In this document: positions 7,795 through 33,741 of the stretch, one piece after another | How the letters are laid out: every line of letters begins with the position of its first letter | Numbering within the stretch: position 1 is the stretch's first letter | Source of the DNA: an uncultured Gemmatimonadales bacterium | Lineage (GTDB): Bacteria > Gemmatimonadota > Gemmatimonadetes > Gemmatimonadales > GWC2-71-9 | Direction of reading: 5' to 3' | Length of the DNA: 64,000 bases | NCBI GenBank assembly: GCA_963798915.1 | Contig: CAWCVB010000001.1 | Span: forward strand, 32,001 to 96,000 | Notes under the pieces: model-generated | Databases searched by the model: none | Seen by the model: only the letters and a program-made list of their open reading frames with translations | What the model was told of the DNA's origin: nothing | Translations under genes and position numbers: made by a program

Positions 7795-8472
7795 ATGCCC
7801 TTACACCCTGCCGGGACCAAGCGCCACCATGGGCTCGTGCGCCTCACGCACTGGCTCAACGCGGCCCTGCTGGCTGGCATGATCGCGAGCGGATTGCAGA
7901 TCTATCTCGCCTTTCCGCACATCGGGCAGAAGGGCCGGGTGTTCGATGTGCCCAACCCGTTCGACATGCAGCGATTTCCCGAGTGGGCGCGGCTGGGCGG
8001 CTGGCTGGGTGGCGGGCTCAACTGGCACTTTGCGCTGGCCTGGCCGTTCGTCCTTTGCGGACTGGCGTACATCCTGTTCCTGGGAATCAAGGGCGAGTGG
8101 CGCTCGCTCCTTTTCCGCCCCAGGGACACCGGCCCCGCCATTCAGATGCAGCTCTACTACATGCGGCTGCGCAAGGACGAGCCGCCCCAGGGCAAGCACA
8201 ACGCGCTCCAGAAGTTTGCCTATACCGCGATCCTGATCCTCGCCACCATCTCGGTACTCTCGGGATTCGCCATCTACAAGCCGATCCAATTGTCCTGGCT
8301 GGTGTCACTCTTTGGCGGCTACGAACTGGCGCGGTACTGGCATTTCGTCGCGGTCTGGCTGTTCGTCGCATTTACGATCGTCCATGTGCTGGCCGTTTTC
8401 CTCTCAGATCCAGCATCGCTCAGAGGCATGATTACGGGGTGGTACCGTGGGAGGCATGTGTCCAATGAGTGA
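7795..8472 (+). CDS. Cytochrome b/b6-domain membrane protein (YdhU/thiosulfate-reductase cytochrome b type)
   Basis: RLTHWLNA, WHFALAW, KHNALQK, YWHF...VHV heme-ligand histidines in four TM helices. Confidence 0.85.
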   Translation: MPLHPAGTKRHHGLVRLTHWLNAALLAGMIASGLQIYLAFPHIGQKGRVFDVPNPFDMQRFPEWARLGGWLGGGLNWHFALAWPFVLCGLAYILFLGIKGEWRSLLFRPRDTGPAIQMQLYYMRLRKDEPPQGKHNALQKFAYTAILILATISVLSGFAIYKPIQLSWLVSLFGGYELARYWHFVAVWLFVAFTIVHVLAVFLSDPASLRGMITGWYRGRHVSNE

Positions 8473-9266
8473 TGAGGGACGAGGGACGGCGGTAGGAGTC
8501 AACGGTCGACCGTCGAGGTCGACCGTAGACCGTCTGACCGTCGCCACTTTGCGATCGCCGAGATTTTCTGCACCTCGCCTCTATCGCGGGGCCCGCGTCG
8601 CTGCTCGCCGCCTGCGGCTGGGATGGCGGGCCGCTGATTCAGCCGAAGCTCCGCAGTATCTCCCGCATCAATGACTGGGTGGGAGAGCACGTGCTGCAAA
8701 GCAACAGCCGACTGGCCCGCACCTACGCCGCTTCGGAACGAAGCGGCAGGATGCCCGCGTATCACGTCGCGCCCCGCATCCCTGAACTGGAGGAGCCGGC
8801 CCGGTGGTCGCTCCAGGTGGATGGACTGGTGCGGAAGCCGGGCGCGTTCACCATGGACATGCTGCAGGCCATGCCCCCGCTGTCCTACACGGTGAAGCAC
8901 CATTGCGTGGAGGGCTGGACCGCCGTCGCGTCGTGGGCCGGCGTTCCGTTCAGCACGCTGGCAGCGATGGTGGAGCCGATGCCGGACGCCCGCTTTGTGA
9001 AGTTCAGTGCGTTCGAGCTGGACTCGCACGGTACCCGTTACACCAACGGCTGGGACATGAAGAGTGCCATGCATCCCCAGACGATGCTCGCCTATGGCTT
9101 CAACGACCGCCCGCTCACGCCTGATCACGGAGCGCCTTTGCGGCTCTACGCGCCCATCAAGCTGGGCTACAAGCTGACCAAGTACCTCGACCGCATCACG
9201 TTCACCCGCGAGCGCCCGGGCGGCTACTGGGAAGACAAGGGTTACCCCTGGCTGGCGGGACTGTAG
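8465..9266 (+). CDS. Molybdopterin-dependent oxidoreductase (sulfite oxidase/MsrP family), Tat lipoprotein; apparent one-base frameshift near 8552
   Basis: HHCVEGW, HGAPLRL, KLGYKLTKY, GGYWED motifs. The same frame carries DRRDFL...LLAAC from 8553 but has TGA at 8535 and no start; ATG 8465 is one base out of frame. Confidence 0.8.
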
Positions 9267-9364
9267 GCAGGATGGGCAGGATGGGCAGGATGGGCAGGTC
9301 GGAGCCCGCTGGCGCGTCATTGCGAGGAGAGCAATCGGCCCATCTCGCCCATCTTGCCCATCCG
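9266..9364. repeat. 9-bp tandem array (GGCAGGATG)x3 plus partial, truncated GTCATTGCGAG cassette, inverted array
   Basis: Read directly; array starts at the TAG of the oxidoreductase. Confidence 0.9.
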
Positions 9365-9379
9365 AAGCCATATTCAAGT

Positions 9380-10375
9380 ATGATCTCCTCTCTCATAATC
9401 GGCACCGGCATGGCGGTCCCCGACCGAGTCGTCACCAACGACGATCTCTCGGCAATCATGGACACCAGCGACCAGTGGATCCGCGAGCGCACCGGCATCG
9501 CCGAGCGGCGCTGGGTGAGAGAGGGAGAGACCGGCGTAGAGCTGGGCGCGGCGGCCAGCCGGGCAGCGCTGGCCGCCGCCGGCTTCGGCGCTGGTGATCT
9601 CGACGCCATCGTATACGCCACCTGTTCGCCCGATCACTTCGCCCCCGGCAACGGAGTGTTCCTGCAGCAGACGCTGGGCGCCGGCAACATCCCCGCGCTC
9701 GACGTGCGGGCCCAGTGCAGCGGATTCATCTACGCGCTGTCAGTGGCCGATGCCTGGATCAGGAGCGGCATGTACCGCACCGTGCTCGTGGTCGGCCAGG
9801 AGATTCAGAGCACTGGTCTCGATGTTTCGTCCGCCGGTCGCAACACGGCGGTCATCTTTGCTGACGGTGCCGGCGCAGCGGTTCTGACCGCCGCAGACGA
9901 GGCCAATCGCGGTGTTCTTGGCTTTGACCTCCACAGTGACGGCGCCAACGCCGAGAAGCTCTGGGTGGATGCTCCGGGGTCGATGTACCATCCTCGGGTC
10001 AGCACGGCGCAGCTGGAGCAGGGCCGGCACTTTCTCCAGATGGACGGTCGCGACGTGTTCCGGCACGCGGTGGTCCGCATGCCGGAATCGGTGATGAGCC
10101 TGCTGGACCGGCTCGGCCTTTCGCGGTCCGATATTGCGCTGCTGATTCCTCATCAGGCCAACCTCAGGATTTCCGAAGCCGTCCAGAAATCCCTCCACTT
10201 GGACGATTCGCAGGTGTACAACAACATCGACAGATATGGGAACACCACGGCCGCGACTATTCCCATCGCCCTTGACGAATGCGTGCGAGCAGGGCGGATT
10301 TCGCGGGGAGACCTGGTGGTGTTGACGGCCTTCGGATCGGGATTCATGTGGGGGAGTGCGGCGGTGAGGTGGTAG
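9380..10375 (+). CDS. fabH: 3-oxoacyl-ACP synthase III
   Basis: DTSDQWIRERTGI; catalytic Cys (AQCSGF), His (PHQANLRI) and Asn (YGNTTAATIP); FGSG. Confidence 0.93.
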   Translation: MISSLIIGTGMAVPDRVVTNDDLSAIMDTSDQWIRERTGIAERRWVREGETGVELGAAASRAALAAAGFGAGDLDAIVYATCSPDHFAPGNGVFLQQTLGAGNIPALDVRAQCSGFIYALSVADAWIRSGMYRTVLVVGQEIQSTGLDVSSAGRNTAVIFADGAGAAVLTAADEANRGVLGFDLHSDGANAEKLWVDAPGSMYHPRVSTAQLEQGRHFLQMDGRDVFRHAVVRMPESVMSLLDRLGLSRSDIALLIPHQANLRISEAVQKSLHLDDSQVYNNIDRYGNTTAATIPIALDECVRAGRISRGDLVVLTAFGSGFMWGSAAVRW

Positions 10376-23159: not shown

Positions 23160-24451
23160 GCGATGCTCTCCAGGAATCGCCGGGCCACCCGCTCGGCATT
23201 TTCATAGCTCACACCGGCCAGCGTGAGCGTCGTCACCAGGCCCTGGTCTCCCTTCACCAGGGCGGCAGCCCGCACCACCACGTCGTACAGGCCGGCCATC
23301 CGGCGATACCGCCGCGCACAGAAGGCAGTGCGGAGCATGCCCTGCTGGCGTTCGACATTGCGGGTGACGCAGCGATAGCTGGTCACATCGTCCTCGTCGC
23401 CCCACATGGGCGAGTCCCCGCTGGCAAAATGCGCATTGTACAGCGCGTAGAACCGGAAGCGATTGAGCTGTTTCGAGCTGATGACCTGATGGGACAGCTC
23501 GATCAATCCCGACGCCTGATCCTCCGAGAGGTAGATGTAATCATCGGTAGAGCACTGGTGCGACACGGTTTCATAGGGCAGCTCAGGGCTGCGGTCGGCG
23601 TCCGCCCAGCAGCGGAAGAACGAGGCCGGCGCCGTGGGCAGCGTAAAGGGCCCGATCCTGACCGTGGGCACTGGCGTCCGGAACACCCGGTCCAGATACT
23701 CATCCTGGTAGGCGAGCATCTGGCGTCCGGCCTCATCCAGGAAGTTGTCGGCCGGTCGGAAATTCTGCGTCCGGCTTCGCTGCAGGAGGGCACGGGCGTC
23801 TGCCGACGGTACCAGGAAGCTCACCTGATTGCCCTCAGTGGAGACGTTGATGCCAATGACCTCGCCGGCGTCCGAGACCACTGGTCCGCCGCTCATGCCC
23901 GGATTCAGCGATCCGGTGAAATGGATCTTGGGATAGAGCGTGTGACGCAGCAGGCCGTTGTAGGTGCCCTCGACGATGCTGAGTCCGAGATCCTTGGGGT
24001 GCCCAAGGGAGAACAGCCGGTCGCCCTGCTCGGGCGTCACGTCGTGCAGCGTGAACCACGCCGATGGCGCCACGGCGCTGCGGACCAGCGCCAGGTCATG
24101 GACCACGTCGATGGCCAGCAGTGTGACGCCGAGCGTGTCTCCAGCGGCGGTGATGACTCGCGCCCGGTAACGATCGGGACTGCGGACCAGCTGGGACACG
24201 ACGTGATAATTGGTGATTACGTCTCCCAGCGCCGAGACGAAGAAGCCGGAGCCGAGCGACGCCTTGGCGGCCGAGCCGGTCTCGGAGATTTCGATCTTGA
24301 CGACTCGATCGCCGAAGCGGCGGAAGACCGAGGGGCTGCCCCGGCTGGCCGCCTGAGCATGCAGCGGCGCAGCGCGGGCCACGATCACCGGTGACCAGGC
24401 GCCTGCCAGGACTGCAATGGCGGCACGGGCCAGCCGCATGCGCGCAAGCAT
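23147..24451 (-). CDS. Exported trypsin-like (S1) serine protease with Cys-containing C-terminal domain
   Basis: TNYHVV (His), HDLAL (Asp), NPGMSGGP (Ser); signal peptide; no PDZ. Confidence 0.88.
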   Translation of the reverse strand: MLARMRLARAAIAVLAGAWSPVIVARAAPLHAQAASRGSPSVFRRFGDRVVKIEISETGSAAKASLGSGFFVSALGDVITNYHVVSQLVRSPDRYRARVITAAGDTLGVTLLAIDVVHDLALVRSAVAPSAWFTLHDVTPEQGDRLFSLGHPKDLGLSIVEGTYNGLLRHTLYPKIHFTGSLNPGMSGGPVVSDAGEVIGINVSTEGNQVSFLVPSADARALLQRSRTQNFRPADNFLDEAGRQMLAYQDEYLDRVFRTPVPTVRIGPFTLPTAPASFFRCWADADRSPELPYETVSHQCSTDDYIYLSEDQASGLIELSHQVISSKQLNRFRFYALYNAHFASGDSPMWGDEDDVTSYRCVTRNVERQQGMLRTAFCARRYRRMAGLYDVVVRAAALVKGDQGLVTTLTLAGVSYENAERVARRFLESIAWTE

Positions 24452-24557
24452 CAGCCGGCGGCCTCCGGGACGCTACGGGAAGAAGAACCAGGCGAGATGG
24501 AACCGCCAAAGTGTAACGCGGGGACGGCGACACCGCGAGGGCCGCTATCTTTTTTGG

Positions 24558-25403
24558 GTGAGCAAGCCATTGGCCAGAATCAAGATGCTACGTGCGGGCT
24601 TCTCCACGCTGGGCCAGGTGGCACCGGCCCTGGCTGCGGAGTACGCCGAGCGGCTCTTCTGCCGGCCGCCCACGCGGGAAGTGCGCCCCCAGGAAACGGA
24701 GTTCCTGGCGACCGGCGCGCGGTTCGAACTCCGGACTGGCCGGGAGACCATCGCCGCCTGGAAGTGGGGCGGCGAGGGCCCGCTGGCGCTCCTGCTCCAC
24801 GGCTGGGGCAGCCGGGCGTCCCGGTGGTGGCGACTGGTCCCGGGACTTGTCGACGATGGTTTTCGGGTGGTTGCATTTGACCAGCCGGCGCACGGCGAGT
24901 CATCGGGGGAACAGGTCTCGCTGCCGCGCTTTGTCGAGACGCTGGAGGCGATGGTCTCGCGCCTGGGACAAGCGCCGGCCCTGCTCTGCGGCCATTCGCT
25001 GGGAGGCTCCGCGGCGGTGATTGGCATGCATCGAGGCATTATGACCCGGCGCGCCGTGCTGCTGGGCGCGCCCTCTGAGCAACGGGAATATGCCGAGCGA
25101 TTTGCCCGGACGGTCGGCCTCCCGGATGCCGCGCGCGACATCATGATGGACAATCTCTCGCGCCGGCTCGGCTTGACCTGGAGCGATCTCGACCTGCCGC
25201 CCCTGGTGGAAGGGCTCGAGGTCCCGGCGCTGATCGTGCATGATCGAAGCGATGCCGAGGTGGCGTTTGCGCACGGCGAGCGTCTGGCGGCCAGCTGGCC
25301 CGGGGCGGAACTGCTCGCCACCGACGGGCTGGGGCACAGCGGCGCCCTGGAGGACGTCGTCGTGATGCAACGGGTCCGCCAGTTCGCGGCGGAGGCCCGG
25401 TGA
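24558..25403 (+). CDS. Alpha/beta-fold hydrolase
   Basis: LLHGWGS, FDQPAHGES, GHSLG nucleophile elbow, HDRSD, GLGH. Confidence 0.9.
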   Translation: MSKPLARIKMLRAGFSTLGQVAPALAAEYAERLFCRPPTREVRPQETEFLATGARFELRTGRETIAAWKWGGEGPLALLLHGWGSRASRWWRLVPGLVDDGFRVVAFDQPAHGESSGEQVSLPRFVETLEAMVSRLGQAPALLCGHSLGGSAAVIGMHRGIMTRRAVLLGAPSEQREYAERFARTVGLPDAARDIMMDNLSRRLGLTWSDLDLPPLVEGLEVPALIVHDRSDAEVAFAHGERLAASWPGAELLATDGLGHSGALEDVVVMQRVRQFAAEAR

Positions 25404-25666
25404 TTGTCATGGATCGCGAGAACCTGTTGGCACCGGGCTGGTCGCATGTCGTCTCGACGACCGGCGATGTCACCGAGCTGGAGGCGCTCCGCCTTGCCGT
25501 CGGCGCACCCCCAGCGGCCCTGCAGCTCACCAACTCGCGCTGGCCGCATCTCGACCTCAAGCTCGAACCACGCGAACGGGCGTTGCGGCGTCCCGACGTG
25601 ACCGTGGTTGAGTCGACCCGTGAGCTGATCCGTTTCGTGCGCGGCCAGCGCGGGATAGCTTCCTGA
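25400..25666 (+). CDS. Small DUF4031-like protein
   Basis: WSHVVS....ELEAL...LQ....PHLDL pattern; GTGA overlap with the hydrolase, 2 nt before iadA. Confidence 0.6.
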   Translation: MIVMDRENLLAPGWSHVVSTTGDVTELEALRLAVGAPPAALQLTNSRWPHLDLKLEPRERALRRPDVTVVESTRELIRFVRGQRGIAS

Positions 25667-25668
25667 GC

Positions 25669-26835
25669 ATGCTGCACCTGCTGCTGAATGCCGATCTTTA
25701 CGACCCACGATCGCTGGGCCGGCGCCACCTGCTGATCGCTCACGGGCGGGTGGCGTGGATCGGCAGTGCGGTGCCCGACATTCGGGGCGTGCCGGTTGAG
25801 CGCATTGACCTGGAGGGCCGCCGCCTCGTCCCCGGCCTGATCGATGGCCACGTTCATCTCACTGGCGGCGGCGGCGAGGCTGGTCCGGAGACGCGTGTGC
25901 CGGCCATCCCGCTCAGCCGGCTGACCACCGCCGGCATCACGTCGGTCATTGGCCTGCTCGGCACCGACGACGTGGTGCGCGGACCGGCGGAATTGCTGGC
26001 GACGACACTGGCACTGCGCCGGCTGGGATTGTCCGCCTGGTGCCTGACGGGTGGTTACCACTTGCCGCCGCGAACGGTGACCGGCAACGTACGTTCCGAC
26101 CTGGCACTGCTCGAGCCGGTGATCGGCGTGGGCGAGGTGGCCATCAGCGATCACCGCTCGTCGCAGCCGTCGCTCGATGTGCTGCTCGCCACAGCGGCCG
26201 AGGCGCACGTGGGCGGATTATTGGGCGGGAAGGCCGGCATCCTGCACCTGCACATCGGGGATGGCGCCCGCGGCCTGTCGTTGATCCGCGAGGCGCTCGA
26301 GCGCAGCGAGCTTCCGGCGAGCGTCTTCAATCCGACTCACATCAACCGGAGGCGGGCATTGCTGGACGAGGCGCTGGAACTGGCTCGCGCCGGCTCGGTG
26401 GTGGATGCCACCGCGTTTCCGGTGGCGGAGGGCGAGGACGCCTGGAGCGCCGACGCATCGCTGGTGCGCTACCTCGACAGCGGCGCGCCGGCCCGGAACA
26501 TCACCGTGAGCAGCGACGCCGGCGGCTGCCTGCCGGTCTTCGACGCCGACGGACGCGTGGCGAGCATGGATGTGGGCCGTCCCGCGGCGCTCCTGCGATG
26601 CCTCGGCGCCGCCGTTGCAGCTGGGCTGCCGCTCGAGCGGGCGCTCCCGGCCTTCACCTCCAACCCGGCGCGACACTGGCAGCTTGCCCGGAAGGGCCGG
26701 GTGGCGGTCGGGACCGACGCCGACCTGCTCGTCCTCGACTCCGAGGGCGGCGCCGACGCGGTCATGGCGCGCGGCCGCTGGCATGTGCAGGGCGGGAAGG
26801 CTATTGTCGTCGGGCCGCTGGAGGAGCTGGCGTGA
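25669..26835 (+). CDS. iadA: Isoaspartyl dipeptidase (beta-aspartyl peptidase)
   Basis: DGHVHLTGGGGEAG, GLLGTD, AISDHRSSQP, HLHIGDG, PTHINR, SSDAGGCLP. Confidence 0.93.
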   Translation: MLHLLLNADLYDPRSLGRRHLLIAHGRVAWIGSAVPDIRGVPVERIDLEGRRLVPGLIDGHVHLTGGGGEAGPETRVPAIPLSRLTTAGITSVIGLLGTDDVVRGPAELLATTLALRRLGLSAWCLTGGYHLPPRTVTGNVRSDLALLEPVIGVGEVAISDHRSSQPSLDVLLATAAEAHVGGLLGGKAGILHLHIGDGARGLSLIREALERSELPASVFNPTHINRRRALLDEALELARAGSVVDATAFPVAEGEDAWSADASLVRYLDSGAPARNITVSSDAGGCLPVFDADGRVASMDVGRPAALLRCLGAAVAAGLPLERALPAFTSNPARHWQLARKGRVAVGTDADLLVLDSEGGADAVMARGRWHVQGGKAIVVGPLEELA

Positions 26836-27668
26836 CGCCGCCGGTAGCGGCTGCTCGCGCCGGCTACGTGGTGCCGGTGGGAGGTGCGGAGGACAAGGTG
26901 GGCGCCAGCATGATTCTGCGGCGGTTCACCACGCTGGCGGGAGGCGACGAGGCCGTCATCGCGATTCTTCCCACGGCGTCGGAGGTGATCGACACCGGCG
27001 AGCGCTACGCCCGACTGTTCCAGAACTTCGGCGCGCGGAAGACGACGGTCATCCCGATCACGTCGCGATCAGACGCCAACGACCCGGCCGTGATTGCAGC
27101 ACTGGAAGAGTGCAGCGGCATTTTCATTACCGGCGGGAACCAGCTGCGCCTTGGCACCATGGTCGGCGGCACCGACCTGGCCCGGACCATCCGGGCACGC
27201 AATGCCGCCGGGGCCCACGTGGCCGGCACCTCGGCGGGCGCCGCGTTCCTCTGCGAGCACATGATCGCGTTCGGCGAGGAAGGGGCCTCGCCCCTGGCCG
27301 GAAGTGTCACGCTGGCTCCGGGCCTGGGGCTGTCGAACACGGTGATCATCGACCAGCACTTCCGCCAGCGCGACCGGCTGGGGCGCCTGCTGACGGCGCT
27401 GGCCTACAACCCGTTCGCGCTCGGGCTGGGTCTCGACGAGAACACGGCGGCGTTCATCGGTCCCGACCATCGGTTCGAGGTGGTGGGAGGAGGCGCCATT
27501 ACGGTGGTGGACCCGTCGGATCTGGAGTTCAGTTCCATGGCGCGGGTGCGCCGCAACGACCCGGTGTGCCTCATCGGCCTCCGGCTGCACATTCTCGACC
27601 ACGGTTCTACGTTCAACCTCTCGACGCGCAAGGCTTCTCCGCCCCCGGAGATTGCCGAGCGCCCGTGA
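26832..27668 (+). CDS. cphB: Cyanophycinase (intracellular, S51 family)
   Basis: GGAEDK, TGGNQLRL, GTSAGA (Ser), DQHFRQRDRLGRL, GLDENT; GTGA overlap with iadA. Confidence 0.95.
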   Translation: MTPPVAAARAGYVVPVGGAEDKVGASMILRRFTTLAGGDEAVIAILPTASEVIDTGERYARLFQNFGARKTTVIPITSRSDANDPAVIAALEECSGIFITGGNQLRLGTMVGGTDLARTIRARNAAGAHVAGTSAGAAFLCEHMIAFGEEGASPLAGSVTLAPGLGLSNTVIIDQHFRQRDRLGRLLTALAYNPFALGLGLDENTAAFIGPDHRFEVVGGGAITVVDPSDLEFSSMARVRRNDPVCLIGLRLHILDHGSTFNLSTRKASPPPEIAERP

Positions 27669-27683
27669 ATTGATATATGCGGG

Positions 27684-30476
27684 GTGACCATGCGCATCAT
27701 CGATCGCGCCGTCTACGTCGGCCCCAGTCTGTACGCCCATTTTCCCGTCATTCGCCTGGACGTCGATCTCGGTGAACTCGAGGACTGGCCCAGCGCCCGC
27801 CTCGGTCCGGCCTTCATCGATCCGCTGCTCGACGCACTGCCCGGGCTTCACGACCATGGTTGCTCCCATGGCGAGCCAGGTGGCTTCGTGCGCCGCCTGC
27901 GCGAGGGTGACGGCACCTGGATGGGTCACGTACTGGAGCATGTGGCCATCGAGCTCCAGAATGTGGCCGGCCACCAGATCAGCTTCGGCAAGACCCGGTC
28001 GCAGGGACCGCGCGGGCAGTACTGGCTGGTCTATCAGTATCAGCAGCGTGAGGTGGGCCTCGAAGCCGGCGAACTTGGCATGCGGCTGCTCCACAGCCTC
28101 CTTCCGCCAGACCTGCGGCCGGACGGAAGCGTGCCGCCCGGTTTTGAGTTTGCGGAGCAACGTGATGAATTCATCCGGTTTGCCCAGCGCCATGCGCTGG
28201 GACCGAGCACGGCGGCGCTGGTCCACGCCGCTACGGTCCGGGGCATCCCATGGCTCCGCACCGGCACCAACAGCCTCATTCAGCTGGGCCACGGCCGGCA
28301 CCAGCGGCGGGTACAGGCCACCGTCACCAGTCAGACGTCGCACGTGGCCGTGGAGCTGGCCTCCGACAAGGAACTGACCAATCGCATTCTCGGCACACTC
28401 GGCCTGCCGGTGCCGACCCAGGAACTGGTGCGGTCTGCCGACGAGGCGGTGGCGGCCGCGGCGCGCGTTGGCTACCCCGTTGTCACCAAGCCATACAATG
28501 GCAACCACGGCCGCGGCATCTCGATCCACCTGCTGACCGAGTCGCAAGTGCGCGACGCATTCCAGGTTGCTGCAGAGCACAGCAACAGCGTCGTGGTGGA
28601 AGCGTTCGTCGACGGACTCGACCACCGCATGCTGGTGATCAATGGCTCGGTCGTGGCGGTCTCGCAGCGGCGGCCGGGCCATGTCGTGGGTGATGGCCAG
28701 CACACGGTCGCCGAGCTGGTGGAGCGGGAGAACGCCGATCCCCGCCGAGGCATCGGGCACGAGAAGGTCCTGACCCGCCTCGAGTTCGACCGGCAGGCGG
28801 AGTCGCTGCTGGCGCGCATCGGCTACACGGCCAGGACCGTGCCGCCCGAAGGCGAGGTGGTCTACCTGCGCTCCACCGGCAACCTGTCCACCGGAGGGAC
28901 CGCCAAGGACGTCACCGACGTCACGCATCCCGACAACGCGGAGATGGCGGTGCGTGCGGTGCAGGCAATCGGGCTGGACATCGGGGGAGTCGATTTTCTC
29001 ACCAGCGACATTGCCCGTTCCTACAAGGACGTGGGCGGCGCGATTGTCGAAGTGAACGCGGCCCCCGGATTCCGCATGCACATGTCGCCCAGTGAGGGCA
29101 AACCGCGCGACGTGGCCGGGCCCGTGATCGACATGCTGTTCCCGCGCGGCGTACCCAGCAGCATCCCGATCGCGGCCATCACCGGCACCAATGGCAAGAC
29201 CACCACCGCCCGCATGCTGGCGCACATCCTGAAACTGGCCGGCCAGTGCGTGGGCCTCACCACCACCGATGGCGTGTACGTGGATGGACAGCGCACCGTG
29301 GCCGGAGACATGACCGGCCCGGTGTCGGCGCGCATGGTGCTTTCGGATCCATTCGTCGAGGTGGCGGTCCTGGAAGTGGCCCGGGGCGGGCTGTTGCGAG
29401 CCGGACTCGGCGTCCGCCAGGTTGACGTTGGCGCGGTACTCAACGTCCGGGAAGACCATCTCGGCATGCACGGCGTCAACTCGCTCCGGGAGCTGGCCAG
29501 CCTCAAGCGGATCGTGGTCGAGGTGGCAAGGGACACGGCGATCCTCAACGCCGACGACCCGCACTGCCTGCGAATGGCCGACCACGCGCCAGCGCGGCAT
29601 CTCTGCTACGTGACGATGAACCCCGGGCATGACCTGGTTCGGGCGCACATCCAGGCCGGCGGCAGGGGCTGTGTGCTGGAGGCCGGCATGACCGGCCAGA
29701 TGATCACGCTCTACGACCACGGCGCGCACATCCCGCTGCTGGCGGCGCACCTGATTCCGGCCACGCTGGACGGCCGCGCCACCCACAATATCCAGAACGC
29801 CATGTTCGCCGCAGCGATGGCCTTCAGCATGGGACTCAAGCTGGAGAACATTCGTCACGGGCTGCAGACCTTCGATACCACGTTCTTCCAGGCGCCCGGC
29901 CGTGGCAATGTCTTCGACGAGCACCCCTTCAAGGTGATCCTCGACTACGGCCACAACGCGGCGGCCGTGGATGCCATGGTCCAACTGGTGGAGCGCCTTG
30001 GCCCCACTGGACGGCGGATCGTGGTGATCACGGCGCCCGGCGACCGCCGGGACGAAGATATCGCCGCCGTGGGCCGCGCCGTGACCGGCAATTTCGACCA
30101 GTACATCTGCCGCCAGGACGACAACCGGCGTGGGCGCGAGCCCGGCGAGGTGCCGCGCATGCTCCACGACATCCTGGTTGACGCCGGCGTGCCGCCCGAC
30201 CTCGTAACGATCGTCGAGGACGAACAGGAAGCCGTCCGGACCGCGCTGGGCGTCGCGCGGGCCGGCGACCTGCTGCTCATCTTTGGCGACAACGTGGCGC
30301 GATGCTGGGACCAGGTCGTGAACTTCCAGCCGGTCCATGTGGAACGGCGCGCGGTGCGCCGCCCGGTCGAGGGAGACGGCGCAACGGTCGTACTCCAGGA
30401 GCGGGCAACGCCGCGCACGTTCGTGCGCGACGTGCGCGGGGTCCGGCTGGCGCGCGACATCGAACTCGAGGACTGA
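27684..30476 (+). CDS. cphA: Cyanophycin synthetase (CphA1 architecture: N, ATP-grasp and Mur-ligase domains)
   Basis: GPSLY, HGCS...GHVLEHVAIELQ, LGPST, KPYNGNHGRG, NLSTGG, EVNAAPGFRMH, TGTNGKTT, EVARGG, PGRGN, DYGHN, PGDRR. Confidence 0.96.
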   Translation: MTMRIIDRAVYVGPSLYAHFPVIRLDVDLGELEDWPSARLGPAFIDPLLDALPGLHDHGCSHGEPGGFVRRLREGDGTWMGHVLEHVAIELQNVAGHQISFGKTRSQGPRGQYWLVYQYQQREVGLEAGELGMRLLHSLLPPDLRPDGSVPPGFEFAEQRDEFIRFAQRHALGPSTAALVHAATVRGIPWLRTGTNSLIQLGHGRHQRRVQATVTSQTSHVAVELASDKELTNRILGTLGLPVPTQELVRSADEAVAAAARVGYPVVTKPYNGNHGRGISIHLLTESQVRDAFQVAAEHSNSVVVEAFVDGLDHRMLVINGSVVAVSQRRPGHVVGDGQHTVAELVERENADPRRGIGHEKVLTRLEFDRQAESLLARIGYTARTVPPEGEVVYLRSTGNLSTGGTAKDVTDVTHPDNAEMAVRAVQAIGLDIGGVDFLTSDIARSYKDVGGAIVEVNAAPGFRMHMSPSEGKPRDVAGPVIDMLFPRGVPSSIPIAAITGTNGKTTTARMLAHILKLAGQCVGLTTTDGVYVDGQRTVAGDMTGPVSARMVLSDPFVEVAVLEVARGGLLRAGLGVRQVDVGAVLNVREDHLGMHGVNSLRELASLKRIVVEVARDTAILNADDPHCLRMADHAPARHLCYVTMNPGHDLVRAHIQAGGRGCVLEAGMTGQMITLYDHGAHIPLLAAHLIPATLDGRATHNIQNAMFAAAMAFSMGLKLENIRHGLQTFDTTFFQAPGRGNVFDEHPFKVILDYGHNAAAVDAMVQLVERLGPTGRRIVVITAPGDRRDEDIAAVGRAVTGNFDQYICRQDDNRRGREPGEVPRMLHDILVDAGVPPDLVTIVEDEQEAVRTALGVARAGDLLLIFGDNVARCWDQVVNFQPVHVERRAVRRPVEGDGATVVLQERATPRTFVRDVRGVRLARDIELED

Positions 30477-30478
30477 CC

Positions 30479-32188
30479 GTGCTCGAGGCGCGGCGACTTA
30501 CCGGCCCTCACCTGCTCGACGACCGCACCGGGGCGGCGCTCGACGTCCCGATCGGGGAAGAACTCGATGCGCTCATCCCCCTCTGGGAAGCCGAGGCGCG
30601 CCGCCTGCTGGACGGGCTGGGGTGGCACCACGAGTACACCCGGATCCACCGGTTCAGTGGCGGCGCCTGCCTGTTCGCCAGCGCGCCGGTGGACGTGCTG
30701 TATGCCGCGACCGATCTGGTCGAGGAAGCATGGCAGGCGGCTGAGGCGCGATACCGGGGGGAAAGCGCCAGGCCGGACGCAGGCGAACGACTGCGCGAGC
30801 TGGTGCTGAACGAACGCCGTCCACATGTGCGGCTGCTGGCGCGTGCCGCGGAAACCCACGGCGTTTCCTTCCTGCACGACAGCGATGGCGTGTCCCTCGG
30901 CACGGGGAATGGGGCCGTCTTCTATCCCCATGATGCCATCCCTGAATCGGCCGACGTGGACTGGCGGTCGGTGCACGACGTGCCGCTCGTCCTGGTCACG
31001 GGGTCCAACGGCAAGACAACCTCGGTGCGGCTGATCACGGCGATGGCAGAGGCGGCAGGGCTGCTCACCGGAAGCGCCACCACGGATGGCGTGGTGATTG
31101 GCGGGGCCATGGTGGCCGCCGACGACTTCAGCGGGCCAATGGGTGCCCGCCGCGTGCTGCGGCACGCGGCGGTGCAATGCGCGGTGCTGGAGACGGCCCG
31201 CGGAGGAATCCTCCGGCGCGGCCTGGCCGTCCGTCATGCCGATGCTGCGCTCATCACGAACATCGCGGAGGATCACTTCGGCGACTGGGGTGTCAATACC
31301 CTGGAGGAACTGGCTGACGTAAAGCTGGTGATCGCGCGCGTCGTGCGTGAGACTGGCGCCGTCTGCCTGAATGGCGATGATGCTGTGCTGGTGCAACGGG
31401 CCCAGGCCCTGCGCCTGCAGCCGTCCTGGTTCTCGCTGAATCCGGCGTCGCCCCTGCTGCAGGCAGGCACCGACGGCGCCTGGCTGGACGGCTCGGAATT
31501 GCGGCTGCGCCACCAGGGACACACCAGCACCGTCATGGACGTGCGCAACATTCCGCTCACCTTGCTCGGAGCGGCGCGATACAATGTGGCCAACGTGCTG
31601 GGTGCCCTGCTCACCGCTGCGTCGCTCCAGCGCGCGGATGGCCAGCCGCTGATTCCGGTAGGTGCCATGCGCGCAGCGCTCGAGAGCTTCGAGTCGTCGG
31701 TCGAGCGGAATCCGGGACGGGGCAACCTCATCGATGTGGGCGGGGTGTGCGTGCTGGTGGACTACGCCCACAACCCGCATGGCATGGCGGCACTCACCCA
31801 AATGGTCTCCACCCTGCCGGCCAGGCGACGCCTGATCCTGCTGGGCCAGGCGGGCGACCGGACCGACGAAGCGCTTCGGGCGCTGGCGCGTTCCGCCTGG
31901 GCGCTGAATCCCGACCGGATCATCCTGAAGGAGATGGGCAAGTATCGCCGGGGCCGACCGGAGGGACAGGTTCCCGACCTGTTGCAGGCCGAGCTGCAGG
32001 CGCTGGGCATGGCGGAGGATCAGATTGAACGGGTGGAAACGGAAGTTGAGGCGGCTCGCTCAGCACTGGCCTGGGCCGAGGCCGGCGACCTCCTGATCCT
32101 GCTGGTGCACGAGCGGCGGGATCAGGTCACGACGCTGCTCGACACGCTGAGGCAGGCAAGCTGGCGGGTGGGAGCGGCGTTGCCATAG
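30479..32188 (+). CDS. CphA-derived Mur-ligase protein lacking the ATP-grasp domain
   Basis: RRLTGPHL N-terminus; TGSNGKTTS, LETARGGILRRGL, NIAEDHFG, LNGDD, NPGRGN, DYAHNP, AGDR; GTG 2 nt after the cphA stop. Confidence 0.88.
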   Translation: MLEARRLTGPHLLDDRTGAALDVPIGEELDALIPLWEAEARRLLDGLGWHHEYTRIHRFSGGACLFASAPVDVLYAATDLVEEAWQAAEARYRGESARPDAGERLRELVLNERRPHVRLLARAAETHGVSFLHDSDGVSLGTGNGAVFYPHDAIPESADVDWRSVHDVPLVLVTGSNGKTTSVRLITAMAEAAGLLTGSATTDGVVIGGAMVAADDFSGPMGARRVLRHAAVQCAVLETARGGILRRGLAVRHADAALITNIAEDHFGDWGVNTLEELADVKLVIARVVRETGAVCLNGDDAVLVQRAQALRLQPSWFSLNPASPLLQAGTDGAWLDGSELRLRHQGHTSTVMDVRNIPLTLLGAARYNVANVLGALLTAASLQRADGQPLIPVGAMRAALESFESSVERNPGRGNLIDVGGVCVLVDYAHNPHGMAALTQMVSTLPARRRLILLGQAGDRTDEALRALARSAWALNPDRIILKEMGKYRRGRPEGQVPDLLQAELQALGMAEDQIERVETEVEAARSALAWAEAGDLLILLVHERRDQVTTLLDTLRQASWRVGAALP

Positions 32189-32242
32189 GGCAGGACGGGC
32201 AGGACGGGCGGGACGGGCGGGACGGGCGGGACGAAGTTCGCC
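32188..32242 (+). repeat. (GGGCRGGAC)x5 array plus CGAAGTTCGCC linker
   Basis: Read directly; begins at the TAG; followed by a degenerate palindromic cassette to ~32330. Confidence 0.9.
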
Positions 32243-32343
32243 ACGTCCATTGTCAGAAATTGCCATCACGCGAGTGCAGCGAGCGAAGCAACCTTGACCG
32301 CTCCGGGAATCTGGCAAGCAGATTCCTCATGGCGACCCGGTGT

Positions 32344-33741
32344 TCACCGGGGCGAGGGCAGCCGGCGAGTGTCCGTTCGCGCTGCCAGGGGCTTCGCCCT
32401 AGGCTGCACCGTCGTCCCGTCATCCCGTCTTCCCGCCTTCGCGTCTCTCTCCGCCACCAGCACCTCGAACCGCTCCGTCAGTTCCCGCTGCCGCCGTCGC
32501 AGCTCGCGCACTCGCCCAGGATGGCGTCGCAGCACCAGGTAGCGGCGCACGTCGCGCCAGGCGGCGTACCACCGTTCACGAACCCAGAGGCCGGCGACGC
32601 CCAGCGCGGGAGCGCCGAAGAGCATGATGACTGCCCAACCAGCGCCTCCCATGGCGCTGGCGGCAATGACCAGAACCAGCAGCCATGCGCCGTACAGCAC
32701 GATCCCGCCAAAGAGCTTGTAGGTGGAGCGCACGTCGCGTTCGCCGTGAATGCCTTCTGCCACCAGGCCGGTGAGCCGGTATGGCAGCCACCACAACAGG
32801 AAGCCGGTGGCTGCCACCGCAAACACTGGTAGCAGCAGAAGGGGCAGGCGCTCGATGCTCCAGCGCACCGCCGTGTCCGCACGAAGCTCTGATTCCAGGT
32901 CGGCCGGGGCCAGATCGAGACGGGCAAGCGACCGGGCGTGATGGCGCACGGCCCGAGCCAGTGGCACCCACCTGCTTTGCGGGTTGCGCCGGATGTGGCT
33001 CAGCAGCTCCGACGCGATGCGGAGCCGCTCCAGCCGCTCGTGCGGCTCATCCGACCCGCCGCGCTCCGCTCGCCAGACTGCTTCGGCGCACTCGACGACC
33101 GGCGCGTCCTCCCAGCGTTCGACGTTCAGGGTGACACCGCGCAAGGCCGTATCCATGCGCGCCGTCAGCTCACGCACCGCCTCGGCGTCATCGGGCCCGC
33201 GTCGCGCCAGGTCATCCCAGAGAACCGGCGCGCCGATCAGGATCAGTGCTTCGGAGCGGAAGGTTTCCTTTTCCCGCATGTTGAGACCGACGGGCAGAAT
33301 GGGCACCGCCTGGCCAAGCGACCCGGCGGCGAGCAGCGCGATCCGGGCGGCGCCAGTCTTGAGCGGCGCGAGCGCCGGTTCATTGTGGCTCTTCCCCTCC
33401 GGAAACACCGCAATTGCGGCGCCCGATGCGAGCGCCCTGGCCACAGCGCCAAGCGCCTCCGCGTTCTGCGCCAGCCTGGAGGGATCGTCCTGCGGCCGGT
33501 ACACCGGCACGGCACGAACGGCGCGGAGCAGCCAGGCAATGCGGAAGTCCTCGAACAGCGGGGCCTTGGCTAGAAAGCGCACCGGCCGCTCCGCGGCAGC
33601 GAGCACCAGTACGGGATCCATCAACGAATTCGGGTGATTGGCAATCAGCAGCGCCGGCCCCGTATCCGGAAGTGCACCGTCACGCGAGAGGCGGTAGAAC
33701 AGCGACGCCGCAAGGCGGGCCAGCCGGGGCGCGACGTTCAT
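32344..33741 (-). CDS. Phospholipid/glycerol acyltransferase (PlsC family) with C-terminal TM region
   Basis: NHPNSLMD (HxxxxD), FLAKAPLF, VPVYR, VFPEGKS, LKTGAARIAL. Confidence 0.9.
   Translation of the reverse strand: MNVAPRLARLAASLFYRLSRDGALPDTGPALLIANHPNSLMDPVLVLAAAERPVRFLAKAPLFEDFRIAWLLRAVRAVPVYRPQDDPSRLAQNAEALGAVARALASGAAIAVFPEGKSHNEPALAPLKTGAARIALLAAGSLGQAVPILPVGLNMREKETFRSEALILIGAPVLWDDLARRGPDDAEAVRELTARMDTALRGVTLNVERWEDAPVVECAEAVWRAERGGSDEPHERLERLRIASELLSHIRRNPQSRWVPLARAVRHHARSLARLDLAPADLESELRADTAVRWSIERLPLLLLPVFAVAATGFLLWWLPYRLTGLVAEGIHGERDVRSTYKLFGGIVLYGAWLLVLVIAASAMGGAGWAVIMLFGAPALGVAGLWVRERWYAAWRDVRRYLVLRRHPGRVRELRRRQRELTERFEVLVAERDAKAGRRDDGTTVQPRAKPLAARTDTRRLPSPR

Follow-up and report, generated by a model that had tools for sequence, protein, structure and literature searches.

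Cyanophycin synthesis is described, in the parts of the literature examined, as the work of two synthetases, CphA1 and CphA2. CphA1 unites an N-terminal (N) domain, an ATP-grasp (G) domain and a Mur-type (M) domain, and for TeCphA1 the structural passages of PMC9427784 assign ATP/Mg binding to K499, T500, T522 and E558 and report that K499A impairs activity. CphA2 keeps an active G domain while its M domain is truncated and inactive, according to the passages on its architecture in PMC10273328. A paralog with N and M domains only was found nowhere in the limited collection of literature searched, in agreement with a preliminary description of the DNA studied here, whose author knew of no characterised enzyme of this kind. 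Term look-ups in parts of PMC10206079, PMC10687191, PMC4742617 and PMC11915815 gave no mention of one, and the Mur-domain enzyme families listed by the last of these, a 2025 paper, include no such member in the part considered. Here, we describe a gene for a paralog of this architecture, called X below, which is apparently unstudied.

Gene X lies in a window of 64,000 nucleotides (the whole stretch of DNA that was analysed) from an uncultured Gemmatimonadales bacterium (GenBank assembly GCA_963798915.1, contig CAWCVB010000001.1, positions 32,001 to 96,000), where it is the last gene of an operon of the order iadA-cphB-cphA-X (Table 1). The products of iadA and cphB match the Pfam families Amidohydro_1/3 and Peptidase_S51, respectively, and the GTG start of cphB and the stop of iadA overlap as GTGA in the sequence. 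The neighbouring CphA, recorded in the database with the ATG at 27690 as its start (928 aa), matches Cyanophycin_syn, Mur_ligase_M, Mur_ligase_C, and six families of ATP-grasp type that reach their cut-offs, while two others fall short. The cphA stop codon occupies 30474-30476, and X begins 2 nt later within an in-frame ORF (30302-32188), in which the GTG at 30479 gives a protein with the N-terminus MLEARRLTGPHL and a start site that matches that of the homologs. A promoter and terminator scan of 25300-32500 returned no promoter-like and one terminator-like element, the latter inside cphA, a count under the mean of shuffled sequences.

Table 1. Features of the iadA-cphB-cphA-X operon and domains of X, in window positions
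Feature	Positions	Strand	Evidence or remark
iadA, beta-aspartyl (isoaspartyl) dipeptidase	25669..26835	+	First operon gene; NCBIfam TIGR01975 389.4 bits vs cut-off 331.25
cphB, cyanophycinase, 278 aa	26832..27668	+	NCBIfam TIGR02069 260 bits vs cut-off 126.6
cphA, complete cyanophycin synthetase 1 (N, ATP-grasp G, Mur-type M)	27684..30476	+	TIGR02068 1109.8 bits vs cut-off 850
GAGGA, Shine-Dalgarno-like	30468..30472	+	Inside cphA end, 6 nt before X GTG start; putative function
X, 569-aa CphA paralog without ATP-grasp domain, whole gene including stop	30479..32188	+	
X residues 1-107, N-domain-like, without Cx(n)HxxEH	30479..30799	+	Alignment to CphA1 7wae_A from model residue 1; hhalign
X residues 108-167, G-domain start remnant and short linker	30800..30979	+	hhalign, X 108-146 = CphA 166-205
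X residues 168-406, Mcore	30980..31696	+	Pfam Mur_ligase_M 173-379
X residues 407-569, Mlid (Mur_ligase_C)	31697..32185	+	Pfam Mur_ligase_C 413-541

An architecture of N domain, short remnant of the G-domain start, and full M domain is supported for X. BLASTP pairs X 168-542 with CphA 494-867 (the M domains, 37% identity) and hhalign pairs X 2-146 with CphA 6-205, so that 288 aa of CphA (206-493) are replaced by 21 aa of X (147-167), a net loss of ~267 aa. The preliminary description had seen a 569-aa CphA paralog without ATP-grasp domain directly behind a complete cphA, with an internal loss of ~265 aa; ORF, Pfam, and BLASTP results confirmed this, and its pairing of RAAETHGVSF with HAATVRGIPW was reproduced by hhalign. 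Mur_ligase_M (68.5 bits) and Mur_ligase_C (54.9 bits) score over their Pfam gathering cut-offs (24 and 28.4), while no ATP-grasp family matches X at E<=0.01. The Mur motifs listed in that description (GSNGKTT, ETARGG, EDH, NGDD, PGR, DYAHN, and GDR) are all present in the translation, with the P-loop GSNGKTT (K179, T180), T202, E238, D265/H266, K282, and NGDD in Mcore, and PGR, DYAHNP, GDR, and a KEMxxYxRGR segment in Mlid. As it had also noted, the C...HxxEH site of the neighbouring CphA (C60...H82xxE85H86) has no counterpart in X, whose translation is free of HxxEH throughout residues 1-167. Family-conserved elements of the N-terminal region are RRLTGPN, W36, GW48-49, and SAPxDxLYAAT, and the remnant, which corresponds to about the first ~40 G-domain residues, keeps the pattern ERxP...GVxF...SxGxGxG.

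Pfam detects no Cyanophycin_syn (PF18921) in the N-terminal 167 aa of X or of five homologs, even at E<=10, so that the case for N-domain homology comes from the fold model and from an hhalign match of moderate score (59.9% probability, E 8.8e-5). The AF2 model of X (pLDDT 91, pTM 0.90) has its best structural match in CphA1 7wae_A (Z 37.7, rmsd 3.0, 544 aligned residues; Foldseek TMq 0.83), with model residues 1-558 set against chain residues 3-877 over the N and M domains, and the N domain is packed on Mcore in this predicted model; MurC/D/E chains reach Z 23-26. The domain scan and structure prediction against CphA1 that had been suggested earlier returned an N+M superposition and no ATP-grasp family.

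The presumed active site of X is well kept. By alignment, K179, T180, T202, and E238 correspond to the TeCphA1 residues K499, T500, T522, and E558, and these four, together with D265, H266, and K282, are invariant in 26 X sequences; among 68 sequences of 33-53% identity, K179, T/S180, and E238 are each present in 67, K282 in 66, and H266 in 65. We put at roughly one in two (about 0.5) the probability that X works by itself as an active ATP-dependent amide ligase that descends from the M half of a cyanophycin synthetase, is co-expressed with iadA, cphB, and cphA, and acts in trans on cyanophycin carboxylates. For this putative ligase, the N-like domain and Mcore would retain their relative arrangement in CphA1, which suggests a polymer-holding groove, and X would bind the chain produced by the neighbouring CphA1, phosphorylate a free chain carboxylate with ATP (likeliest the beta-carboxylate of an Asp without side chain), and join an amino acid to it. 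As X has no ATP-grasp domain, it could not extend the backbone and would depend on a chain or oligomer from another source, on which it would act in trans. Speaking against such a ligase, the M domain of the neighbouring CphA is itself intact, with P-loop, E564, D591/H592, K608, and GDR invariant across 18 CphAs.

Residues around the presumed amino-acid pocket differ between X and CphA1, as read through alignment to MurE and prior knowledge of MurE rather than from a substrate-bound structure. R789 (95%), F804 (95%), and Y532 (93%), all conserved in CphA1, are not conserved in X, and CphA1 D812 (at least 90%) aligns to a non-conserved X position. Conversely, R247 is found in 49/49 X sequences where CphA1 carries A/E/S, and R287 in 43/49 where CphA1 carries E (41/55); further conserved arginines are R224 (49/49) and R228 (47/49), and N411, G456/Q457, and W532 are likewise conserved specifically in X. 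Since CphA1-conserved residues are replaced, the added amino acid or the exact carboxylate used by X may differ from Arg on the terminal Asp, although we treat an altered pocket as a lead only and the differences could instead reflect lost G-domain contacts. The preliminary description had floated three roles, all of them speculative: a ligase for another side-chain amino acid, a beta-Asp dipeptide ligase, or a partner subunit of CphA. That X might be a globally more basic enzyme was rejected, as its M domain is more positive in just 14 of 23 pairs (mean difference +1.6), and net charge across the X and CphA domains of these pairs shows no clear shift, the differences lying at single positions only. 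It is conceivable, but on balance doubtful, that X adds something other than Arg or uses free carboxylates away from the side chain of the C-terminal Asp, be it on an unmodified Asp within the chain or at the alpha position of an attached Arg, such that bacteria with cphA and X would make a chemically distinct cyanophycin variant, as would those with a second, independent G-less clade in Actinomycetota and Chloroflexota. If true, the variant made by the cphA-X bacteria has so far gone unnoticed.

The same chemistry as that of the M domain could also serve small molecules, with X coupling Arg, or some other amino acid, onto free Asp or short oligomers at the beta-carboxylate and so supplying beta-Asp-Arg units or primers for CphA. 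The arginines R224, R228, and R247 could bind the additional free carboxylate of such a small substrate. However, this role is unlikely: the neighbouring CphA carries the CxnHxxEH motif, described as primer-generating in the relevant passages of PMC9262961, which makes primer supply by X seem unnecessary; the IadA of the operon would hydrolyse such dipeptides; and the modelled X keeps an N-like domain and a CphA1-like Mcore packing, the region that holds the polymer in CphA1.

Alternatively, the main role of X might be structural or regulatory, as a partner of CphA in a mixed oligomer, its own catalysis being secondary or absent. The 2-nt gap points to tight coupling of the two genes, the cphAs adjacent to X form essentially one clade in the tree (24 of the 26 adjacent rows and one other), X has kept a conserved remnant of the Gcore start, and in TeCphA1, Mcore touches the Gcore of other protomers, as stated in the passages on its assembly (PMC9427784). 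A complex predicted from X and the neighbouring CphA's G domain (residues 160-492) scored 0.01 against a mark of 0.32, a value that, without control runs, weighs on neither side. We consider a mainly supporting role quite improbable, as a pseudoenzyme is not expected to keep K179, T180, E238, H266, and K282 in 65-67 of 68 sequences.

Sources label X "UDP-N-acetylmuramyl tripeptide synthase" or "Mur ligase family protein", and Pfam names only Mur_ligase_M and Mur_ligase_C, so X might be taken for a Mur-type ligase of the cell wall, folate, or poly-gamma-glutamate pathway that merely adjoins cphA. This is very improbable on several grounds. The NCBIfam scores of X lie far under the cut-offs for murE (79.2 vs 257.3), murC (46.7 vs 335), murD (42 vs 212), and murF (44.8 vs 288.6), likewise for folC, and a separate Mur-ligase locus exists in the genome, with two adjacent ORFs labelled MurE and MurF by similarity only. 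TIGR02068 gives X 338.5 bits, over model positions 477-857 only, and does not reach its equivalog cut-off of 850. A profile of 26 X sequences searched against the PDB found CphA1 7txv/7lg5 at E 4.8e-99 and bacterial MurE at ~1e-19 to 1e-20, and both this search and the M-domain tree place X inside the radiation of CphA M domains.

Gene neighbourhoods argue in the same direction. Among 201 genomes of the same class, X is present in 24 and cphA in 30; all 24 genomes with X have cphA, and X occurs in none of the 171 genomes that lack cphA. In loci from relatives, X stands directly behind cphA in 14/16 (one more locus ends at a contig edge), and all ten named loci with full-length X have cphA and a cyanophycinase nearby. 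Linkage of X to cphA is not absolute: two unrelated genes separate them in one locus (L008), they are convergent in two others (L004, L006), and in two genomes (G063, G142) the matches lie on separate contigs, the X contig stretch of G142 ending 157 bases past X without cphA. In one relative, G050, other genes take the place of cphA and X is broken into three pieces with TAG. No further conserved partner gene was seen near L008 or L037, where the neighbours are an unrelated OMP beta-barrel, DUF4349, SDR, Dyp peroxidase, and PCuAC. As 6/30 same-class genomes with cphA lack X, cyanophycin synthesis does not generally require it. Cultured carriers of X are Luteimonas lutimaris JCM 16916 and Plesiocystis pacifica SIR-1, and Kribbella carries the sister clade described below.

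X is an old family. The reading frame of X is intact, the family spans several phyla at constant length, and its M domains form one deep-branching clade (SH-aLRT 96) with three actinobacterial G-less proteins as sister (98). A profile of its N domain matches 848 cluster representatives at E<=1e-3, of which 240 reach E<=1e-30, with none longer than 800 aa among the best 150 of the 848. The preliminary description had considered that homologs might prove to be full-length CphA with dN/dS near 1, or that X might group with MurC-F; instead, 118 of the 120 best matches are 557-609 aa long, the three closest pairs have dN/dS values of 0.09-0.13, compared with 0.066-0.073 for their adjacent cphA genes, and X groups with CphA M domains. 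The idea that X arose as a recent internal deletion in a duplicated cphA and is decaying is refuted; for it speak the somewhat faster evolution of X than of cphA (tree, dN/dS) and the broken copy in G050, against which stand the homolog lengths, the N-domain profile count, the tree, the dN/dS, and the retained catalytic residues.

X is a conserved fourth gene in many cyanophycin clusters (24/30 same-class genomes with cphA). Its conservation, intact predicted ligase site, and strict dependence on the presence of cphA suggest an unrecognised step in polymer making or modification, which might be finishing, repair, capping, or chemical diversification of this nitrogen-storage polymer. X might also prove useful for producing modified cyanophycins, a group of industrial interest.

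Compared with described systems, X is closest to CphA1 (TIGR02068; PDB 7WAE, 7LG5, 7LGQ, 7TXV), with which it shares membership in one gene cluster, the N fold, the Mcore packing, and an entire M domain including the residues for ATP/Mg. It differs in lacking the CxnHxxEH site and the G domain responsible for poly-Asp backbone extension, in having lost R789, D812, F804, and Y532, and in having R247, R287, N411, G456/Q457, and W532 of its own. CphA2 is, like X, a reduced CphA paralog, and the passages on its function describe it as acting beside CphA1 on one polymer (PMC10273328). The reduction in X is the opposite one, as the preliminary description had proposed and as the CphA2 architecture given above supports: X lacks the G domain and retains a full M domain with catalytic residues. 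With MurE, MurC-F, and FolC, X shares the central and C-terminal fold and the P-loop, Mg, DH, and Lys motifs, whereas its N-terminal domain is CphA-like and that of the Mur ligases binds UDP. The DNPR motif of MurE has a role in amino-acid selection, and the X segment aligned to it differs. Finally, the G-less CphA paralogs of Actinomycetota and Chloroflexota (e.g., Kribbella, L037/L043), which form the sister clade, share the N+M architecture of X (model vs 7wae_A: Z 50.2, 519 residues over N+M), but their N-terminus is nearer CphA1 (ELRVLDGPNLYF), they lack the G-start remnant, and their gene usually converges on cphA instead of following it; cphA falls within the available stretch in 7/9 of these loci, at 4-5 kb in the Kribbella L037/L043, and not in L040 and L041.

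X, the 569-aa CphA paralog that has N and M domains and no ATP-grasp (G) domain, closes a head-to-tail run of four genes (iadA, cphB, cphA, and X) on the forward strand of the GC-rich (60–70%) window, and ends the operon because the genes downstream of it are convergent. GAGGA lies 6 nt upstream of its GTG start, whose position relatives share. Among named proteins, those closest to the adjacent CphA (71–75% identity) belong to Gemmatimonadales MAGs, so the genome (3.3 Mb, 17 contigs, 84.8% complete) is probably a Gemmatimonadota MAG.

Genes of the cyanophycin operon and flanking features (window positions; scores in bits against model cut-offs)
Feature	Position	Strand	Remarks
ORF, 438 aa	23078–24394	+	flanks operon; no Pfam or NCBIfam match
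alpha/beta hydrolase	24417–25403		between 438-aa ORF and iadA
iadA	25669–26835	+	TIGR01975 389 vs 331
cphB	26832–27668	+	TIGR02069 260 vs 126.6; GTG start overlaps iadA stop
cphA	27684–30476	+	TIGR02068 1110 vs 850
X	30479–32188	+	GTG start two bases after cphA stop
ORF, 190 aa	32260–32832	+	flanks operon; no Pfam or NCBIfam match

Pfam scanning found only Mur_ligase_M (173–379) and Mur_ligase_C (413–541) in X; in the neighboring CphA it found both Mur domains together with Cyanophycin_syn and six ATP-grasp-type families that reach their cut-offs, in agreement with the preliminary description, which had the Mur domain kept and ATP-grasp absent. By BLASTP, X 168–542 is 37% identical to CphA 494–867. 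The X N domain has no Pfam match even at E 10; profile-profile comparison of 47 X N-termini with CphA sequences longer than 840 aa pairs X 2–146 with CphA 6–205 (probability 59.9%, E 8.8e-5), reproducing an N-terminal pairing made earlier by eye, and the two alignments together leave 21 X residues to stand in for CphA 206–493. All motifs previously listed for X were found in its translation, and the CxnHxxEH site of the neighboring CphA (C60, H82, E85, and H86), which passages of PMC9262961 describe as a primer-generating peptidase site, has no counterpart in the X sequence, as had also been claimed.

An AlphaFold2 model built from 26 family members (pLDDT 91, pTM 0.90) has CphA1 structures as its best matches (Foldseek E 1.8e-37, TMq 0.83 to the CphA1 chain 7wae_A), with VIA-align placing model residues 1–558 on chain residues 3–877 (Z 37.7, rmsd 3.0, 544 aligned residues) and returning Z 23–26 for MurC/D/E and FolC. 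From this match, the N-terminal part of X is predicted to have the CphA1 N-domain fold and to sit on Mcore in the CphA1 manner, the G domain being cut out.

Among named genomes, full-length X was found at ten loci (Acidobacteriota/Thermoanaerobaculia, Steroidobacteraceae, Luteimonas, Rubrivivax, other Gammaproteobacteria, Planctomycetaceae, and Plesiocystis), every one with cphA and cyanophycinase nearby; cphA ends just before X in seven, is convergent with it in two (L004 and L006), and is separated from it by two unrelated genes in a Planctomycetaceae MAG (L008). The latter (L008:5001–6995) encode an outer-membrane beta-barrel and a DUF4349 protein. The earlier question of whether an N+M-only protein consistently follows cphA is addressed by 14 of 16 loci from relatives, where X stands directly behind cphA (in G009 the contig stops ~300 bases past the X start, and in G053 the cphA belongs to another clade and X is missing), and by a 201-genome sample of the class, scored for X with the N-domain profile and for cphA with the CphA G domain at E ≤ 1e-40. 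X was detected in 24 of these genomes and cphA in 30, including 24/24 with X; X was absent from all 171 without cphA, and in the six that have cphA alone the G domain is divergent (45–51% identity vs 67–75%). In 21 of the 24 genomes with X, it follows cphA on the same strand of one contig; the two matches fall on different contigs in G063 and G142, and a second, opposite-strand cphA stands between the first and X in G083. The order at this last locus (L099) is cphB, cphA, second cphA (G domain 52% identical), X, i.e., two full synthetases and a G-less paralog in one locus. Separately, the X-less genome G053 carries, adjoining its cphA (42% identical to the window's), a gene (L096:1830–2978, −) for a 382-aa protein with only the Cyanophycin_syn N domain (PF18921, E 2.2e-37, residues 56–166), a further kind of CphA fragment gene. 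In G050 the cyanophycin cluster has decayed (L098:6395–12083): iadA is intact, cphB survives only as fragments, cphA has given way to a PAS histidine kinase (8214–9833, +) and a methyltransferase, and X is broken by frame shifts into three pieces and contains a TAG, a single case consistent with X depending on cphA.

The preliminary description had considered that homologs might prove to be full-length CphAs and X a one-off deletion decaying with dN/dS near 1, neither of which is what we found. Of 8000 candidates in a word-indexed search with X, 5627 were hits, CphA1s among them, and 118 of the best 120 are 557–609 aa long (the two shorter ones are 429 and 477 aa); in their sources they are named "Mur ligase family protein", "UDP-N-acetylmuramyl tripeptide synthase", or "cyanophycin synthetase". 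When 1.84 billion representatives were searched with a profile of just the first 165 residues (built on 15 sequences), 848 matched at E ≤ 1e-3, of which 629 remained at a limit of 1e-10 and 240 at 1e-30; of the best 150, 64 are 540–630 aa, 83 shorter (probably fragments of short contigs), three 631–800 aa, and none above 800 aa, and no X-type N domain heads a full-length CphA among them. Three cluster representatives, P0242 (757 aa) and P0203 and P0246 (645–662 aa), join this N domain to longer proteins with the P-loop at positions 232–357, and may have insertions within the N domain or behind it. In the ESM Atlas, 29 of 30 neighbors carry Mur_ligase_M+C at ~570 aa, in "Mur ligase family protein" clusters. 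dN/dS (NG86) is 0.09–0.13 in the three closest X pairs (0.066–0.073 for the adjacent cphA) and 0.15–0.36 in more distant pairs, with dS near 1. Across X and 67 full-length representatives (33–53% identical to it), K179, T/S180, and E238 are each kept in 67 of 68, R246 and R247 in 68, H266 in 65, and K282 in 66; MurD/E carry a carbamylated Lys 16 residues past their DH motif.

Grouping with the peptidoglycan ligases MurC-F, also raised earlier, is contradicted by a tree of 110 M domains (IQ-TREE quick search, LG+G4), in which X is closest to CphA M domains. The root was an ORF of the genome's separate Mur-ligase locus, labelled MurE by similarity; L011_X (start not found), L004_C (fragmentary), and a MurF-labelled ORF (no BLAST match to the reference) were left out. 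X is monophyletic in it (49 rows, SH-aLRT 96), with three short actinobacterial proteins as its sister (support 98), and full-length CphA1s all fall outside this group. The cphAs adjoining X come close to forming a clade of their own, which takes in 24 of the 26 adjacent rows and one further row, and branches are longer in X than in the neighboring cphA. Sister-clade proteins begin ELRVLDGPNLYF, and their N domain runs directly into the P-loop; their model (8 sequences, pLDDT 82.9) aligns with 7wae_A over 519 residues (Z 50.2, chain 1–877). Their gene lies near cphA in L035, L037, L043, L048, L069, L073, and L079, and no cphA was seen within reach in L040 and L041.

X combines the full ATP/Mg apparatus of Mur-type ligases and a predicted CphA1-like N/Mcore arrangement with no backbone-extending domain, and in the class sample and at the ten named loci it occurs only together with cphA. 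We infer that it acts in M-type ligation on cyanophycin: X would bind the chain in a CphA1-type groove and carry out the ligation in trans. It is not a replacement for CphA M activity, since the M domain of the adjacent CphA is intact. MurE selects its amino acid through DNPR; the aligned CphA1 segment is [D/E]xxxRGR, whose acid, D812, is conserved to 90% or more, and that of X is KE[ML]xx[YLM]xRGR, one residue longer and without a conserved acid. CphA1 R789 (GDRRD, 95%), F804 (95%), Y532 (93%), and H514 (91%) are unconserved in X, which has its own R247 (49/49; A/E/S in CphA1), N411, G456/Q457, W532, and H544. The position of SuCphA1 E607, a polymer contact according to passages of PMC9262961, is E in 41/55 CphA1 and R in 43/49 X. 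These systematic differences are a lead, suggesting that X may differ from CphA1 in the amino acid or the acceptor that it uses; they could also be a trace of lost G-domain contacts.

X is confirmed as real and conserved: it is an uncharacterised variant of an enzyme kind already known, a Mur ligase superfamily member closest to CphA M domains. By the criteria examined, it belongs neither to CphA1 (no G domain; TIGR02068 338 vs cut-off 850) nor to CphA2, and reaches the cut-off of no NCBIfam model. No description of an N+M-only CphA paralog was found in the literature searched; a RefSeq-wide cyanophycin gene survey (PMC10206079) contains neither "truncated" nor "M domain", has "Mur" in its reference list alone, and in passages on CphA1 makes no mention of a G-less paralog.

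Tandem full-length cphA pairs occur at 12 loci (L021, L045, L046, L052, L054, L055, L060, L061 (Nitrosomonas europaea), L064, L066, L068, and L078), and the M domain of the first copy is weakly conserved in 11 of them (25–31% identity to the window's; 39% in L064). We take these to be the betaproteobacterial cphA/cphA' pairs of older literature; cphA–X is a different arrangement.
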